64,000 bases of DNA from a phage. A program made the translations under genes and the position numbers. The stretch's first letter is position 1. Each line of letters begins with the position of its first letter. Positions 3,395 through 59,434 of this stretch are shown here, one piece after another. The stretch is from sequence record PZ452578.1, one strand, 5' to 3'. The notes beneath the pieces are model-generated. The model made no database searches. It saw nothing but the letters and a program-made list of their open reading frames with translations, and was not told the origin of the DNA.

Positions 3395-3853
3395 TTAATA
3401 TGCCTGCAAAACAAATTTAAAGTTATCAGCCAACATACGGTTCATTTCTTCAAGTGTTTGATACTCAGAATGATGATTACGAGTAAACGCCAAAGCTAAC
3501 TGACCTTTTCCAAATCCCGTCGTCAGAGGTTTCATCTTAGAAGCAGGCAGATAAAATACTGTGTATGGAACATTGTTATTTGCAATAGTACGTGCAAGCT
3601 GAGACCGACGTTGACGAATATGACTTAGAACTGCACTGAATCCTTGCTTAGAACGCTGATTACCTACATAAAATCGTGCTGACACACATGGATTACTAAA
3701 TGGACGACCATCTAATTTACTTACTAAAAAGTAAAATCCAGGTTTAGATAAAATATCTTTATGCGGAGTTCCCAAAAACCACTCACCACCCTTGATTGTA
3801 CCAATAACAGTAGCGCCTGCGTTGTTCAGATCAGTAACAGTCATGTATTTCAT
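3395..3853 (-). CDS. ndd: Ndd nucleoid disruption protein
   Basis: ORF track ORF; internal start [18 protein letters not shown] gives ~152 aa matching T4 Ndd as recalled. Confidence 0.8.
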
Positions 3854-3911
3854 ATTAATTTCCTCTAAATTATTTTCTACTCCATGGCCGCATGAATACG
3901 CGGCCATTAAA

Positions 3912-4127
3912 TTAATCGTCGCAGTCGACGCTCAATTCCCAAAACTCTTCTACAGTATAAGTTTCAGTATCATTTTCAATACAGAAACGTTCATTACTGT
4001 TATTTGCTAAAGTAGCATTAACTGTCGGTTTCTCGCTAGTGCTCTTAAGAGGTGAAATACGAATTAACTGATCACCGTTATCTAAACAGAAAATTTCACC
4101 AACTTTTACATCTTTAAAACTTTTCAT
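3912..4127 (-). CDS. hypothetical protein (71 aa)
   Basis: ORF track. Confidence 0.55.
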
Positions 4128-4242
4128 AATTCACCTCAAGGAGTATAAAATCCGAATGCAGTTGTTGACCATCCCATCCAATATGGAAAATTTGCACCAA
4201 TGTAAAACATAAGAATATAAAACCAACCGCTCAGCAAATTCA

Positions 4243-4461
4243 TCATTTTACACCGTTCCAAATTGTTTCAACCACAGATTTTAAACCATTTTGATGAATA
4301 TCCATTCCGACTACCGCCATCAAATAAATTCCAACTACAACTGAACCTAAGGCAAAAATCAGCATGAAAATGAATAAAGCCGGAAAAATATTATCGAAAA
4401 ACCATTCAATAAATGTAAAAGCACTGCGTTTACGCTTCATATTTTCCTCACATAAATCCAA
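4243..4461 (-). CDS. hypothetical membrane protein (72 aa)
   Basis: ORF track; hydrophobic core. Confidence 0.55.
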   Translation of the reverse strand: MDLCEENMKRKRSAFTFIEWFFDNIFPALFIFMLIFALGSVVVGIYLMAVVGMDIHQNGLKSVVETIWNGVK

Positions 4462-21002: not shown

Positions 21003-21474
21003 TTATTTTACCTAAAACAATAGTAGGAGCATCGTCAAATTCATGAATTTTTAGCAATTTTGGATTTAAATTATTCCATACATAATAAATAAAGTATGAT
21101 AAAGCATCTTCACTCGCAATTATAAATTTATTTCCTTCATTTATTTTCCAATCATATACTGAATCATACGAATAAAAAGATAAAGGATTACCATTATATT
21201 GTTCTGCGCTAACATTAATGTATTCGGATTTAGTAAATGCTTCAATTGCTCTAAACGGACTATTTGGCACAGTTTCAATAATTCCGATCTTTTTAAGTTT
21301 TATTTTAACATCTTCTGGAACTGGCATTGAAACGAAATTTTCTACGAGATACATAGGGTTACAATAACCCTTATCAATCACTACGGCTACAGTAATTGGA
21401 ACATCTTTAGCAAACGACATGCTATTACTGCTAATATACATTTCAAACAAAATTGCTTCCATAATTTTCCTCAA
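20977..21474 (-). CDS. hypothetical protein (165 aa)
   Basis: ORF track. Confidence 0.55.
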
Positions 21475-22105: not shown

Positions 22106-22351
22106 TTATTCACCAGTTACTTTCCACAAATCTTCATTTGCAGCAATCCATTCAGTACGTTGATTTTCTTCATATACTGTAGAATATGCTGCTTTTTCTG
22201 AAGGGAATGTCTGATAATGAGCACCAGAAATTTTGTGAACGTCAGAATAAAGAGGGAAAGCTACAGAAATTTCCTTTCCTTCAATTTTCTTATTTCCATC
22301 TAATTTCTGCTCAAATGTTTTGATATTAACATAACCGCGAGTACTAGCCAT
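22106..22351 (-). CDS. soc: Soc small outer capsid protein
   Basis: ORF track 81 aa; MASTRGYVNIKTFEQKLDGNKKIEGKEISVAFP matches T4 Soc. Confidence 0.9.
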   Translation of the reverse strand: MASTRGYVNIKTFEQKLDGNKKIEGKEISVAFPLYSDVHKISGAHYQTFPSEKAAYSTVYEENQRTEWIAANEDLWKVTGE

Positions 22352-22367: not shown

Positions 22368-22577
22368 TTAAATTACATGATTATTTATAATAAATTCTCG
22401 CGGAACGTTAAAATACCCAATTTTAGTTAATATAACAATATCGCCGTTAATAATTACCGGAGAATAATCGGCTGGAGCATTAAATTTCCAATGGGCTCTA
22501 ATATTATATCCATCAGAACCAAATGCTCGACTAGCCGGTCTCCCGGCTTTTTGCCATGCATAAAAATCAAATTTCAT
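22368..22577 (-). CDS. hypothetical protein (69 aa)
   Basis: ORF track. Confidence 0.5.
   Translation of the reverse strand: MKFDFYAWQKAGRPASRAFGSDGYNIRAHWKFNAPADYSPVIINGDIVILTKIGYFNVPREFIINNHVI
22382..22389 (-). promoter_or_regulatory. T4 late promoter TATAAATA about 30 nt upstream of soc
   Basis: Reverse complement of 22382-22389 is TATAAATA; soc is a late gene. Confidence 0.55.
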
Positions 22578-22777
22578 TTTGAATGCTCTATAATTAATTT
22601 TAAGGCTTCTTCACGCACCAACTTGTCTAATGGTATATGCCCAGTTTTAATTGTGTAAGCTTTGTGGAGCTGATTAGATAAGAGCTCGTATGTGAGCTCT
22701 TTGTCATAATCTTTAAATAGCTGGTCAATACGTTTCTTGCGGGCTTTCTTAAGCTGGCGTTTATTTAAACGAGCCAT
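22574..22777 (-). CDS. hypothetical protein (67 aa)
   Basis: ORF track. Confidence 0.55.
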   Translation of the reverse strand: MARLNKRQLKKARKKRIDQLFKDYDKELTYELLSNQLHKAYTIKTGHIPLDKLVREEALKLIIEHSK

Positions 22778-23295
22778 TAATATCCTCTGTCTTGACGAGC
22801 GAAGTTTTCAGCATTTTTCAGATAATAAAGTTTAAATATTTCTTCAGCTGACATTCCAAGAGCAATGAATTTATTCATGAAAAAGTGAAATTGATCAATC
22901 AGTTCAAATTTAATTTCAAGTTGATCTTCAGGAGATAAATCTTGAATTTTCTTGGATTGCATTTCAGAATAACGTTTCTTCCAAGGTTTCCATACAGCAG
23001 AAGCTTCTTTTTCACCATTACTCATACCACCAAGAGAAGTATATAGCTCGCGAGTTTCGTCTGCGATATAATCGTCTTGGTTTCGCAACCAAGCAAGAAC
23101 TTCTCCTGCAGTTTCAAGTGAATCGGGATGACGATTTGTTTCTGGTTTATCATTAGCCAAACGAATCTGTAAATGCCGCTGCATGTCAAGCATAACCTGC
23201 AGTGGGTCAATATTGTGCATAATATTCTCAGCATATGCACGATTTGCTTTATCAACACCTTCGATCAAATGAGCGCATTCATTAAAGTAAGCCAT
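22777..23295 (-). CDS. 56: gp56 dCTPase/dUTPase
   Basis: ORF track ORF; internal start MAYFNECAHLIEGVD gives ~172 aa; C-terminus KLYYLKNAENFARQDRGY recalled from T4 gp56. Confidence 0.8.
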   Translation of the reverse strand: MAYFNECAHLIEGVDKANRAYAENIMHNIDPLQVMLDMQRHLQIRLANDKPETNRHPDSLETAGEVLAWLRNQDDYIADETRELYTSLGGMSNGEKEASAVWKPWKKRYSEMQSKKIQDLSPEDQLEIKFELIDQFHFFMNKFIALGMSAEEIFKLYYLKNAENFARQDRGY

Positions 23296-23366
23296 TATTT
23301 TTCCTTTCAATTCGTGGGTTAGTAGATTAATTATACAATAAATATATAAAGCAATAAGGAGGACAT

Positions 23367-23567
23367 ATGGTACAAAAATTAATGGCACTTGTTAATGCCA
23401 TCAAAGGTAATAAAAAACGTATAGCTTTTACTATTTCTGCTATGGTAGGAATTTTACTCTGGAACTTTATTTTATCACCTGTTGCAATTGCACATGGTAT
23501 TAATATTCCAGTAGTTACTCTTGATACATTTGTAGATTTAGCATTTGCTTTAGTTGGGTTAATTTAA
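23367..23567 (+). CDS. small membrane protein (66 aa), plus strand
   Basis: ORF track; AAGGAGG 4 nt upstream of ATG; two hydrophobic segments. Confidence 0.5.
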   Translation: MVQKLMALVNAIKGNKKRIAFTISAMVGILLWNFILSPVAIAHGINIPVVTLDTFVDLAFALVGLI

Positions 23568-24592
23568 ATCTTAGCATATTTAGATAGCCGCATTTTAGCC
23601 ATCAACCCCTGTGCAATATTATTTTTCATATATTCCATAATTTGTTCAGGGGTTGCACCTTCCTTTCTAATCATATCATTAACATCTTTTGATTTCCAGG
23701 GAGATTTATCCCAAAACATAACCCTTTCTCCTGCATCAACTAATTTAGTCATTCGTTTGATAGTGTCAGGGTGACGAGGTTCATTATCTAAAACCCACAC
23801 TCGTCTATCTTTAAATGGAACAACTTCTAAGTCTAATTGACCACCCGTAATAGCTATACCATTTTCAATAAAAAGTGAATCTATAGGTCCTTCTAGAACA
23901 TATACATCACCATCTTTAACCCGTTCGACACCATAGATTTTTGTTGCTTCAGGATAAGCTTTGATAGTGATATATTTTTGGGGAGCATCTTTCTTTAATG
24001 CACGTCCTTGAAAAGACTCGGCTTTTCCATTAGCATTATAAATTGGAATAACAAGACGAGGCTCAGGTATTTCCTTTTTATATGTTCCCGGTGCTATGCT
24101 ATTAACCAATTTAGGCCATTCGGTTGTAAACCAAAGATATTTCCATTTATCCTTTGGAATACAACGAGCTTTTACATATTTTATAATTGGATGGTCTTCC
24201 GCCAGTTTATCTAATCGAACACATGACGGAAGAGATTTAATTATTTTCTTCTCAGGTTGTTTAGGAAGTTCTTTAGGTTTTTCTACTGGACGACTTTTAC
24301 CTTTTTCTTTTCTTATTTCAAAGATATACTCACGATATAAATCAGGTTCAAACTCCTTTAAATATATTCCGATTGGTGCATGATAGTTACAGTTATAACA
24401 ATGAATATTTCCTTCATTATTATCACCATAATACCATCCACGAGCTTTATTCTGGTCGGTTTTTGAATCTCCACAAACAGGGCATCTAAACCGCAATTTA
24501 AAAGTTGAACTATTATTTACTTGTGTGAATTTAGGTAAATGAGCTAATGCACGATACGCAAACTCATTATCAATCCAAGGTATTGATGACAT
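23564..24592 (-). CDS. 61: gp61 DNA primase
   Basis: ORF track 342 aa; zinc-ribbon CPVCGDSKTD...CYNC; matches T4 gp61 length. Confidence 0.9.
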   Translation of the reverse strand: MSSIPWIDNEFAYRALAHLPKFTQVNNSSTFKLRFRCPVCGDSKTDQNKARGWYYGDNNEGNIHCYNCNYHAPIGIYLKEFEPDLYREYIFEIRKEKGKSRPVEKPKELPKQPEKKIIKSLPSCVRLDKLAEDHPIIKYVKARCIPKDKWKYLWFTTEWPKLVNSIAPGTYKKEIPEPRLVIPIYNANGKAESFQGRALKKDAPQKYITIKAYPEATKIYGVERVKDGDVYVLEGPIDSLFIENGIAITGGQLDLEVVPFKDRRVWVLDNEPRHPDTIKRMTKLVDAGERVMFWDKSPWKSKDVNDMIRKEGATPEQIMEYMKNNIAQGLMAKMRLSKYAKI

Positions 24593-38459: not shown

Positions 38460-38510
38460 AGTTCCTCCGTATAAATATGTTTATCACTCGCTGTATCAAA
38501 AGGATATGTT

Positions 38511-39227
38511 ATGAATTATAAACTAATTTATGAAAAGTTAATCTCTAATGCTAAATCTCGAAAACTTGATTGCTATACTGAATCTCATCACATTATACCG
38601 CGCTGTTTAAATGGAAGTGATGATGCTTCAAACTTAGTAGATTTAACACCAGAAGAGCACTATGTAGCTCATCAACTTTTAGTAAAAATTTATCCTTCTG
38701 AACCAAAATTAGTCTATGCTGCTAACATGATGACAGTTTCTACGAAATACGCTAAACGCAACAATAAAACTTTCGGTTGGATTCGTCGTAAACTCTGGGA
38801 AATAGAAAAGAACAAAGAATTCTCCCAGGAGACACGAAAGAAAATGTCTGATGCAGTAGCTAATAAAGCAAGACTAACTTGTCCTCATTGCGGTAAGTCT
38901 GGATTAAGCGGGAATATGAATCGTTGGCATTTTGATAACTGCCCAAATCACCCTAATCCTAAAGTTAGACCACCAATGTCTAAAGAACACAGAAATAATA
39001 TCTCAAACGGGCTTAAAGCAATCGTTCTTGAAGAAACATCCTGCGAATTCTGCGGAATGATAGGCAAGAAATGCGTTATCGCAGCGCATAGAAATTTCTG
39101 CAAGAAAAATCCAAATGGACGCAAGAAAACTGAAAAGACTGGTACTTGCGTCCATTGCGGTAAAGTTACCACTTTCGGAAATTTATCAAGGTGGCATAAT
39201 GATAACTGTAAATATAAACCTAGCTAA
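38511..39227 (+). CDS. HNH homing endonuclease (mob-like) with Cys-rich C-terminal DNA-binding repeats
   Basis: ORF track 238 aa on plus strand; HNH motif ESHHIIPRCLNGSDDASNLVDLTPEEHYVAH; absent from this position in T4. Confidence 0.8.
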   Translation: MNYKLIYEKLISNAKSRKLDCYTESHHIIPRCLNGSDDASNLVDLTPEEHYVAHQLLVKIYPSEPKLVYAANMMTVSTKYAKRNNKTFGWIRRKLWEIEKNKEFSQETRKKMSDAVANKARLTCPHCGKSGLSGNMNRWHFDNCPNHPNPKVRPPMSKEHRNNISNGLKAIVLEETSCEFCGMIGKKCVIAAHRNFCKKNPNGRKKTEKTGTCVHCGKVTTFGNLSRWHNDNCKYKPS

Positions 39228-40908
39228 TCTTAGCTAAACTAAATCTACCAACTTTTTCCATCTGAATATGCTGACCATATTCTTGTGGGTCATGGTCTTT
39301 ATGCGAAATTATGAAGAAGTTGGTATCCTTCAAACCATCTAAAATTTTAGCTACATTTTTAATGCCTTCAGCATCAAATGCACCATCATACACTTCATCA
39401 AGAAATAAACAACTTATTTTAACACCTGAAACTTTTTCAGCAATATCACGCCAAGTAAATAAAAGAGCAATATCAATTCGTGCTTTTTCACCTTGACTGA
39501 ATGAAGCATAACTAAAATCTTCACGACCACGGGATTTAATTGTCTCATTAAATTCTTCATCTAATGTAAACACATAATCCGCTTCCATTATTTTAAGATA
39601 ATGGTTAATCTGCTTATTAAATAATGGAATGTACTTTTTAATAATAGCACCTTTAATACCAGAATCTTTGAGCATATCAGTCAAAATTCCTCGGTGGTAT
39701 TTTTCCATTACTAAATTAGTTTTTGTCTTAACAATTTTATCAAGTTCTTCTTGAAGCAGTGCTATTTCATCAGCATGGTCAATAAACTCAGAAGATGCTT
39801 TTTCTATAGCCGCTTTAACTTTTTTAGCTTTATCTACCGTCGTGATTAGAGATTGCTTTTTATTGCGAATATCATTTGCCAACGACTGTTGGGTTTTAAT
39901 ATTATCTCGGTATTCATCAACAAGAACTTTTAAATTATCACGGTGTGTTGAAAGCTGTTCAAATGAATGCGTACATTCAGAAACTTTATCTTTAATTTTA
40001 GAAACAACTTTATCACCGGAACTTAATTGTGACAAACAGGTTGGACATAATCCACCTTCGTGATACATATTAATGACTTTATTATACGAGTCAATTTTTG
40101 ATTTAATTAAAAATGCTTCTTGACCGATTTTATTAAATGCATCAGTCGGGTCTTCATCTAAAACAATATTAACTAATCTTTCATTAGCTTCTTCTATTTC
40201 TGATTTTAGCGTTCTAGCTTCTTTTGCCAAATCATCATACATATTTTGTAGACGAGTAAGGTTGTCACCCGTTAATTTTTTCTGGCGTTCAACGTTATCA
40301 TTATATATTTTAATTTGTTGGATAATACTATCTTTTTTAACATCAAGCACTTGGTTTTGTGAATTTAATTCACGTATTAGTGCTTTATTAAGCTTATCCA
40401 TTTCAGCTAATGTTCCTACCTCAAGCAGGTCTTCCACAAGCTTTCTTCGTGCAGGGGTCGACAAACCCATGAAAGGGATATACCCTGCTGTACCAAGGAC
40501 AACAATCTGCTTGAAACTGGCATATGACATTCCGATAAGCTGTTCAAATTCTGCTTGGAAATCTTTACTGCTGGCAGATTCATTAAGACGTGTACCGTTA
40601 ACGGTGATTTCGAAAACGTTTGGTTTTTGTCCTCTTTTGATATAGTACTTTTTCTCATCATATTCCATCCACAGTTCAACTAAAAGTTCTTTCTTATTTG
40701 TGCTGTTTATTAATTGACCTTTCTTTACATCACGAAATGGCTTGCCAAAAAGCCCAAATGTGATGGCTTCTAGCATAGTAGACTTACCACCGCCATTTCG
40801 TCCAGTAATAAGAGTTTTTTGAACCTTATCTAATTGAATGTCAATAGGATTTCCACCTACTGACATTATATTTTGATACCTAACTCGGTTTAGTTTAAAA
40901 TTCTTCAC
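39220..40908 (-). CDS. 46: gp46 recombination nuclease subunit (Rad50/SbcC-like)
   Basis: ORF track 562 aa; Walker A GRNGGGKST. Confidence 0.9.
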   Translation of the reverse strand: MKNFKLNRVRYQNIMSVGGNPIDIQLDKVQKTLITGRNGGGKSTMLEAITFGLFGKPFRDVKKGQLINSTNKKELLVELWMEYDEKKYYIKRGQKPNVFEITVNGTRLNESASSKDFQAEFEQLIGMSYASFKQIVVLGTAGYIPFMGLSTPARRKLVEDLLEVGTLAEMDKLNKALIRELNSQNQVLDVKKDSIIQQIKIYNDNVERQKKLTGDNLTRLQNMYDDLAKEARTLKSEIEEANERLVNIVLDEDPTDAFNKIGQEAFLIKSKIDSYNKVINMYHEGGLCPTCLSQLSSGDKVVSKIKDKVSECTHSFEQLSTHRDNLKVLVDEYRDNIKTQQSLANDIRNKKQSLITTVDKAKKVKAAIEKASSEFIDHADEIALLQEELDKIVKTKTNLVMEKYHRGILTDMLKDSGIKGAIIKKYIPLFNKQINHYLKIMEADYVFTLDEEFNETIKSRGREDFSYASFSQGEKARIDIALLFTWRDIAEKVSGVKISCLFLDEVYDGAFDAEGIKNVAKILDGLKDTNFFIISHKDHDPQEYGQHIQMEKVGRFSLAKIS

Positions 40909-58714: not shown

Positions 58715-59434
58715 TTACGATTCTTCTAAATGTCTTTTCTGAAAAGTTGATACCATACTACGATAAGGTTCATTTGGATACCCGTGTTTTATAGCTTCCT
58801 TTGTAAATTTTCTCCATCCGTATTTAGTTTCTTTCCAAAGCTCGAATAATTCATCTTCATACTGCCATATAGTTAAATGAGAACGCTTTGCAGCTTTAAT
58901 TCCATTAATGTGCTTTTCTTTTACTGTAGGATTGCTTAGTGTCTTTTTAATAATATTACTAACTTTTCTAACAAAAGCTGGGTCCTTATATCGTTGTGAA
59001 GTTTTTATTGAAGTGTTTAATTTAGCTTCCGGCGTGGATGTGACCTCTTTCATCTTTTTCTTCATATGCTCTATATGATTAGGATTTTTCCATAAATTTA
59101 TAGAATGCTTTTTACATTTTATCCTAGTTTCATCTGCAACCTTTCCTCCTTCACCCCCATATGACAGGTTAACGCAGTTTTTTCCATATTTCAATTTACC
59201 TGCCATGATATATAATATTTCGGCTTGTACCATTTTATCATAATTATCAAAAACTTCTAAAACCGTTTTTGATAATATATGGTCATTTGACACTTTTACA
59301 CGTTCTATATAATTTCCACTACCAACATACGAATCATTGATGTTATTAGTTATATGTCGACCATAATAGTATTTCTTAATACCTGTCTTTAAATTTAATA
59401 TTTCAGTTTTATAGATAGTAAAATATTTTTTCAT
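58715..59434 (-). CDS. putative GIY-YIG-family homing endonuclease (239 aa)
   Basis: ORF track; N-terminal TIYK...KYYYG pattern and Lys-rich C-terminal repeats; weaker match than the 42349 gene. Confidence 0.5.
   Translation of the reverse strand: MKKYFTIYKTEILNLKTGIKKYYYGRHITNNINDSYVGSGNYIERVKVSNDHILSKTVLEVFDNYDKMVQAEILYIMAGKLKYGKNCVNLSYGGEGGKVADETRIKCKKHSINLWKNPNHIEHMKKKMKEVTSTPEAKLNTSIKTSQRYKDPAFVRKVSNIIKKTLSNPTVKEKHINGIKAAKRSHLTIWQYEDELFELWKETKYGWRKFTKEAIKHGYPNEPYRSMVSTFQKRHLEES

Follow-up and report, generated by a model that had tools for sequence, protein, structure and literature searches.

The annotated gene order of T4 (NC_000866) runs soc, segF, 56, dam, 61, with the DNA adenine methylase gene dam between 56 and 61. 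A sequence-only reading of a T4-like phage sequence (record PZ452578.1; the whole 64,000-nucleotide stretch analysed is called the window here) had given this order correctly and reported that neither segF nor dam stands at its site. It described the gap between 56 and 61 as occupied by a small opposite-strand ORF and interpreted the arrangement as a loss of dam that would alter the modification state of the phage DNA. The locus therefore raises the question of whether dam has been lost and the small ORF has taken its place, and of what the ORF is. The reading that we favor, at a probability of roughly 85%, is that the window derives from a Tequatrovirus with the T6-type soc-to-61 allele, in which the segF and dam cassette insertions are absent and the ORF is a resident conserved gene rather than a dam substitute.

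The window phage is T4-like and belongs to the genus Tequatrovirus. Between positions 22700 and 24700 it shares 97.6-98.5% DNA identity with RB18, RB14, phiD1, Shfl2, and others (among the matches listed, of 539), and over 25 kb around the locus several genomes show 95-97% identity, no listed match being closer. The window is a mosaic, ~95-98% identical to several of the T6-type phages (T6, RB14, RB32, RB18, Shfl2, and UFV13) and an exact match to none of them. Its gene order is soc, soc.1, soc.2, 56, the small ORF, and 61, after which come 61.1, 61.2, sp, 61.4, dmd, and 41. T6 (AP018814) has the identical order, including the plus-strand orientation of the ORF, at 95-100% protein identity, and the 56-ORF junction is common to T6, RB14, RB32, RB18, Shfl2, and UFV13, with no difference of substance. 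The locus thus represents a known and frequently sequenced allele class (T6, RB14, RB32, and others) in which the ORF is already annotated as a conserved hypothetical gene; the RB14 annotation, for example, reads 56, RB32ORF030w, 61.

At one end of the locus lies soc (22106-22351, minus strand), encoding the 81-aa small outer capsid protein (Pfam Soc PF16855, E = 2.3e-55; 100% identity to T6 Soc). At the other end lies gene 61 (23564-24592, minus strand), encoding the 342-aa DNA primase, which is 99% identical to the gp61 of T4, T2, and T6. The gap between 56 and 61, put at about 270 bp in the sequence-only reading, measures 268 bp (23296-23563); the span of 23296-23567 given in that reading extends to where the plus-strand ORF ends. 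The 66-aa ORF described there is present on the plus strand at 23367-23567, as is its strong AAGGAGG ribosome binding site (23356-23362, plus strand), which is separated from the ATG by 4 nt. Gene 61 and the ORF are convergent, and their stop codons share a TTAA, which gives a 4-nt overlap.

We considered the soc/56 site first. In the window it is filled by soc.1 (22368-22577, minus strand; 69 aa; DUF7422, E = 6e-46; phrog_5773), which is 98.6% identical to its T6 and 95.7% identical to its T2 counterpart, and by soc.2 (22574-22777, minus strand; 67 aa; phrog_5782, E = 2e-37), which is 95.5% identical to the T6 homologue. Homology searches and family scans revealed no SegF homologue between soc and 56, in agreement with the earlier observation. 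The sole SegF-like match in the window is a GIY-YIG gene at 58835-59416 (minus strand; 26.5% identity over 200 aa, E = 1e-7), another seg-type endonuclease that is distant from SegF. Published accounts describe segF as a free-standing homing endonuclease gene inserted at soc/56, with gene 56 as its target (PMC2988022), and state that T2 is without segF and has soc.1 and soc.2 in its place (PMC5931544, citing Belle et al. 2002).

Gene 56 itself (22777-23295, minus strand; dCTPase/dUTPase, 172 aa; phrog_173, E = 2.4e-44) encodes a protein with 98-99% identity to the gp56 of T2, T6, and RB14 (98.8% to T2) and only 69% identity to that of T4, as determined by comparing the window gene with positions 3771-4286 of the T4 locus (L001). 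There are thus two gp56 alleles, ~69-72% identical, one of the T4 type and one shared by T2, T6, and the window, although the adjoining gp61 is ~99% identical. This split fits SegF-driven marker exclusion around gene 56, and possession of the T2/T6 allele by the window is in keeping with the presence of soc.1 and soc.2 in place of segF, as in T2. The T2/T6-type allele also occurs in Tequatrovirus contigs from IMG/VR that are without segF (L011, L013, and L015). At the same site, a Gaprivervirus-like IMG/VR contig (L016, 1742-2404, minus strand) carries a segF homologue with 65% identity to T4 SegF that is missing from L017 and L020, both closely related to it; segF has therefore spread across genera at this position.

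With regard to dam, a tblastn search with T4 Dam against the whole 64-kb window, a check that had been proposed from the sequence alone, gave no homologue (best E = 0.76). The reported absence of dam between 56 and 61 is therefore borne out and extends to any Dam-like sequence in the window. For the genome as a whole we had to rely on relatives, the phage's own sequence being covered over 64 kb. The complete genome of HEMP5, which is collinear with the window, has the same junction, and is contiguous across 56, the ORF, and 61, contains no Dam match better than E = 0.84. The 271-bp gap sequence matches 508 phage records, 335 of which span all of it and so have the dam-less junction of the window, and in the other 173 the junction is unlike that of the window; about two thirds of Tequatrovirus records thus share the dam-less junction. 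A T4-type Dam at ≥90% identity is found in 182 phage records, a number that roughly matches the 173 non-window junctions. Taken with the absence of Dam from HEMP5, this correspondence indicates that dam is very probably absent from the entire genome of the window phage. The variable presence of dam-like and restriction-enzyme-like genes among Tequatrovirus phages has been noted before (PMC13390438).

It could be argued that dam has instead been relocated to the ~100 kb of genome outside the window, since the sequence examined is 64 kb of the genome and other T4-like genera have dam genes, 45-61% identical, at other map positions. The HEMP5 genome and the correspondence between Dam records and junction types both speak against this idea. 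So does the position of dam in the dam-bearing loci checked, where it sits between 56 and the small ORF (T4, T2, and the IMG/VR loci L014 and L015) or, in OES_C-3, is placed beside the small ORF by the record coordinates. We regard relocation as extremely unlikely.

The absence of dam would mean, as a logical consequence, that no phage-made 6mA is present at GATC. Most of these phages are normally in this condition, and the consequence is real but ordinary; all that the dam-less reading predicts is missing phage-made 6mA at GATC sites, which are themselves rare. The window contains 66 GATC sites compared to 225 ± 13 expected, a ~3.4-fold under-representation, although the phage itself apparently encodes no Dam.

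Whether this absence represents a loss is a separate matter, and here the sequence-only reading probably had the direction of change wrong. Mosigvirus, Gaprivervirus, and Kanagawavirus phages also carry 56, the ORF, and 61 with no dam at that site. Because these three genera share the dam-less order, we infer that it is the majority arrangement here and probably also the more ancient one. Judged from the comparison of loci, dam, together with the gene T2_31 in T2, is an inserted accessory cassette. T2 (MH751506), with the order soc, soc.1, soc.2, 56, dam, T2_31, ORF, 61, shares soc.1, soc.2, the gp56 allele, and the small ORF with the window and differs by its full dam and T2_31 cassette. T4 has the same flanking genes and differs more widely, with segF for soc.1 and soc.2, the divergent gp56, and an insertion that separates the small ORF from the gene-56 promoter and consists of dam and only the last ~20-23 codons of T2_31 (L001, 5140-5202, minus strand).

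That remnant shows that deletions do happen here, and the T4 cassette is bordered by short AT-rich repeats (ATTAATT), so one could propose that the dam-less state is a true loss, dam having recently been deleted from an ancestor of the T2/T4 kind. However, neither dam nor T2_31 has left a remnant at the window's junction, the layout of the promoter region there is unlike the product of a simple deletion between the T4 repeats, and the dam-less order recurs in the three other genera. A recent deletion is therefore unlikely, and we favor the view that the cassette was gained by the T2 and T4 types.

In T2-type phages, dam is separated from the small ORF by T2_31, a 181-aa gene (T2 MH751506; L002, 1876-2421, minus strand). 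It gave weak, sub-threshold matches to the DpnII restriction endonuclease family of Pfam (E = 0.0096) and to REase_II of PADLOC (E = 1e-4), and it contains a D…EIK motif. Together, dam and T2_31 resemble a phage-borne GATC restriction-modification pair, which may be degenerate. A restriction-enzyme-like gene beside dam has been described in some isolates (PMC13390438).

The proposal that the small ORF occupies the place of dam did not hold, since both T4 and T2 have this ORF as well, located between dam and 61. Because these phages have dam and the ORF together, replacement of dam by the ORF can be ruled out. The T4 copy is intact (NC_000866, 17738-17938, plus strand, next to gene 61) and identical at 64 of 66 residues, with the same ATAAATA box and Shine-Dalgarno (SD) sequence described below, and it is unannotated in the T4 RefSeq record. 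The T2 copy, likewise next to gene 61, is annotated as "similar to RB69ORF029w; RB32030w". Elsewhere the ORF appears as dam.1 (T4T, HM137666), RB32ORF030w, "similar to RB69ORF029w", or phrog_2024. The last is a family of unknown function in PHROGs that the window protein matches over its full length (residues 2-66 on profile positions 1-65 of 65, E = 1.4e-31).

A tblastn search of the phage collection with the small ORF retrieved 503 records at ≥90% identity, several of which encode a 100% identical protein, and 194 records below 60%; the ORF is thus present in about 500 Tequatrovirus records and in about 190 from more distant phages. We sampled the latter group through RB69-like phages such as F2, Gaprivervirus TH15, and Kanagawavirus Q7622. 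In these sampled relatives the ORF is again flanked by 56 and 61 and encoded on the opposite strand, and dam is missing from the site, and the homologues of Mosigvirus, Gaprivervirus, and Kanagawavirus, 38-56% identical, are always found between 56 and 61. An alignment over the four genera contains ten invariant residues (W32, N33, F34, P38, G44, P48, V50, A61, G64, and L65). These fall within a family motif W-N-F-x3-P-x5-G-x3-P-x-V and a C-terminal A-x2-G-L, and the window protein has all of them. When 1.84 billion representative proteins were searched exhaustively by HMM, the family was found only in these phages and in three long repeat proteins, which we took for artefacts rather than homologues because they contained many short matched stretches. 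A word-indexed protein search returned near-identical proteins only, the small protein had no match in Pfam, NCBIfam, or PADLOC, and a search for the ORF found nothing in the searchable literature.

We then examined how the ORF might be expressed. The T4 late-promoter consensus TATAAATA has the heptamer ATAAATA as its core, and this heptamer occurs 16-22 nt upstream of the small-ORF ATG in all six of the otherwise divergent upstream contexts that we compared (dam-less Tequatrovirus, T4, T2, RB69-like, Gaprivervirus-like, and Kanagawavirus). An SD sequence of the GGAG/GGAGG type is also kept in all six. The window box, AATAAATA (23337-23344, plus strand), lies 22 nt before the ATG and matches seven of the eight consensus positions, with A for T at the first. 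Kanagawavirus has the full octamer TATAAATA and is the only one of the six contexts with T at the first position.

ATAAATA is rare in the window. Counting both strands, we found seven copies compared to 40.7 ± 6.3 expected, a depletion of about six-fold that suggests selection against stray late promoters. The sites are at 596, 21085, 22382, 23338, 25316, 38471, and 51174. Apart from the copy upstream of the small ORF, one is the soc late promoter (TATAAATA at 22382-22389, minus strand, ~30 nt upstream of soc), one precedes a plus-strand HNH gene, and one more precedes an ATG; the copies at 21085 and 25316 (both plus strand) are antisense within early genes and have no ORF behind them. The HNH gene is a 238-aa ORF (38470-39227, plus strand) with an HNH motif (…ESHHIIPRCLNGSDDASNLVDLTPEEHYVAH…) and Cys-rich repeats. 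It stands directly behind a perfect TATAAATA (38470-38477), abuts the start of an opposite-strand 562-aa ORF (39220-40908) that is probably gene 46, and is itself probably a mob-type free-standing homing endonuclease gene.

The conserved box, together with the depletion of the heptamer, suggests a putative late, gp55-dependent transcript with a leader of ~15 nt, and the small gene is thus probably late-expressed. Late in infection, gp55-directed RNA polymerase would start ~6 nt past the ATAAATA box, and the resulting transcript would be translated into the 66-aa protein and would also read antisense into gene 61. Scans for sigma-70 promoters and terminators gave results at chance level.

On the other strand, gene 56 is preceded by a predicted MotA-dependent middle promoter (23330-23354, minus strand). 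MotA promoters consist of (a/t)(a/t)(a/t)TGCTT(t/c)A located ~12 bp upstream of a TAnnnT -10 element. In the window, TTGCTTTA (23347-23354) is separated by an 11-nt spacer from the -10 sequence TATAAT (23330-23335), and the whole aligns with the T4/T2 promoter (TTGCTTAC, 12 nt, TATAAT). The collinear T4 gene-56 promoter is annotated as P(M)16.53 in the T4 record X01416; in T4 this is the oriA primer promoter. In the window allele, the late box AATAAATA lies inside the spacer of this opposite-strand promoter, an overlap that could partly explain the sequence of the window box. In T4 and T2 the late box adjoins dam or T2_31, so this caveat does not apply to them. With the predicted late promoter facing away from the middle promoter and nested within its spacer, the 71-bp intergenic region of the window may be regarded as a compact divergent promoter.

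Transcription continuing antisense into gene 61 would also be compatible with a quite different explanation, namely that the ORF is untranslated and its sequence is maintained for a role as RNA or DNA, for instance as a gene 61 antisense RNA or a terminator for the gene 61 transcript. A terminator-like hairpin followed by a T-run does lie inside the ORF on the minus strand (23404-23379). However, the number of such hairpins equals chance (one found, 0.7 expected), the hairpin was not seen by eye in the Mosigvirus sequence, and the 5' region of the mRNA has no unusual predicted structure (z = 0.19). Furthermore, the reading frame is open over 65-69 codons in four genera even though synonymous sites are saturated between genera (dS 1.2 to >2.5), with pairwise dN/dS values of 0.11-0.39, and the strong SD sequence is conserved. 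Since ~210 bp separate the ORF from gene 61 in Gaprivervirus, overlap of the two is not required. Because no other gene overlaps the ORF beyond the 4-nt stop overlap, protein coding is the only evident constraint. We therefore consider an untranslated element very unlikely and conclude from the substitution pattern that the small ORF is a real gene under purifying selection, far beyond what chance would give; the conservation check proposed from the sequence alone thus came out in favor of the ORF. The hairpin lies on the gene 61 strand within codons 5-13 of the small ORF and consists of an 11-bp stem followed by TTTTTGT. Some phage records annotate a "terminator" somewhere in the ORF/primase region.

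The sequence-only reading called the product a two-helix membrane protein, and this description stood only for the first helix. Residues 1-18 are amphipathic and basic, with a net charge of +5. Residues 19-41 form a good transmembrane helix that contains the invariant WNF...P, and the best 19-residue window (residues 19-37) has a summed Hessa free energy of +0.4 kcal/mol. A conserved turn (residues 42-48, AHGxxxP) follows. The C-terminal segment (residues 49-66) is hydrophobic, with a summed free energy of about +6.5 kcal/mol, but carries two conserved acidic residues (Asp) four positions apart, which make it marginal as a second span. An AlphaFold2 (AF2) model built from a shallow family alignment is a plain three-helix peptide (helices at 2-12, 16-42, and 52-65; pLDDT 71.5), and a Foldseek search against the viral models of BFVD returned orthologues only, with no neighbor outside the family. 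We predict an inner-membrane protein of N-in topology in which one transmembrane helix is firm; the positive-inside rule places the N-terminus in the cytoplasm. The basic N-terminus would be cytoplasmic, the helix at 19-41 would cross the membrane and end in the short AHGxxxP turn, and the acidic amphipathic C-terminal helix would lie on the periplasmic side of the inner membrane, at its surface or embedded in it. Because trypsin would yield tiny N-terminal peptides and one 48-residue hydrophobic peptide, the protein should be nearly invisible to shotgun proteomics.

A small, membrane-embedded, probably late-expressed protein with one or two hydrophobic helices could be a holin or a pinholin-like lysis protein, and the UniProt/UniRef entry for the orthologue of phage OE5505 (P0025 / A0A482MZV5) is indeed named "Holin". 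That name looks automatic, however, and several findings make a holin quite unlikely, slightly more so than a recent deletion of dam. There is no match to a Pfam or NCBIfam holin family, PHROGs assigns no function, the HMM search returned only the family itself and artefacts, and the remaining Foldseek "holin" matches have E >5. In class II holins, two transmembrane domains precede a C-terminal tail that is charged and hydrophilic. The small protein has only one firm transmembrane helix, its charged cluster is N-terminal, and it ends in a hydrophobic …ALVGLI, so its charge distribution is the reverse of that of holins. The gene lies between replication genes and not beside an endolysin gene, and a holin, T, is already present in T-even phages together with the antiholins RI and RIII.

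A broader comparison from general knowledge with class II holins, pinholins, and T4 Imm, Sp, and RI showed a likeness in size, hydrophobic helix, and probable late expression, with no sequence or profile similarity and with a location unrelated to lysis or exclusion genes. We rejected the name "putative head morphogenesis protein" given to the small ORF in the T6 record AP018814 (L021). The product names of that record are plainly wrong, gp56 being called "ferredoxin" and Soc "terminase small subunit", and the small ORF is started there at an internal ATG.

For the T-even phages, the missing dam and segF genes matter little, as their absence is the usual condition of most T4 relatives, T6 included. 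Of more consequence is the small gene, which is conserved in four T-even genera with a late-promoter box and a strong ribosome binding site and yet has no entry in the T4 RefSeq record; because that annotation omits it, T4 omics studies relying on RefSeq cannot see it. Our tentative suggestion, put forward as a guess, is that the 66-codon gene is an overlooked late T-even gene whose product would have an envelope function during late infection; it might affect the timing of lysis, lysis inhibition, or the integrity of the envelope. Superinfection exclusion, head assembly, and anti-defence would be further candidates for such a role; head assembly could then be of the membrane-bound kind, and anti-defence could be directed against a membrane-acting host defence.
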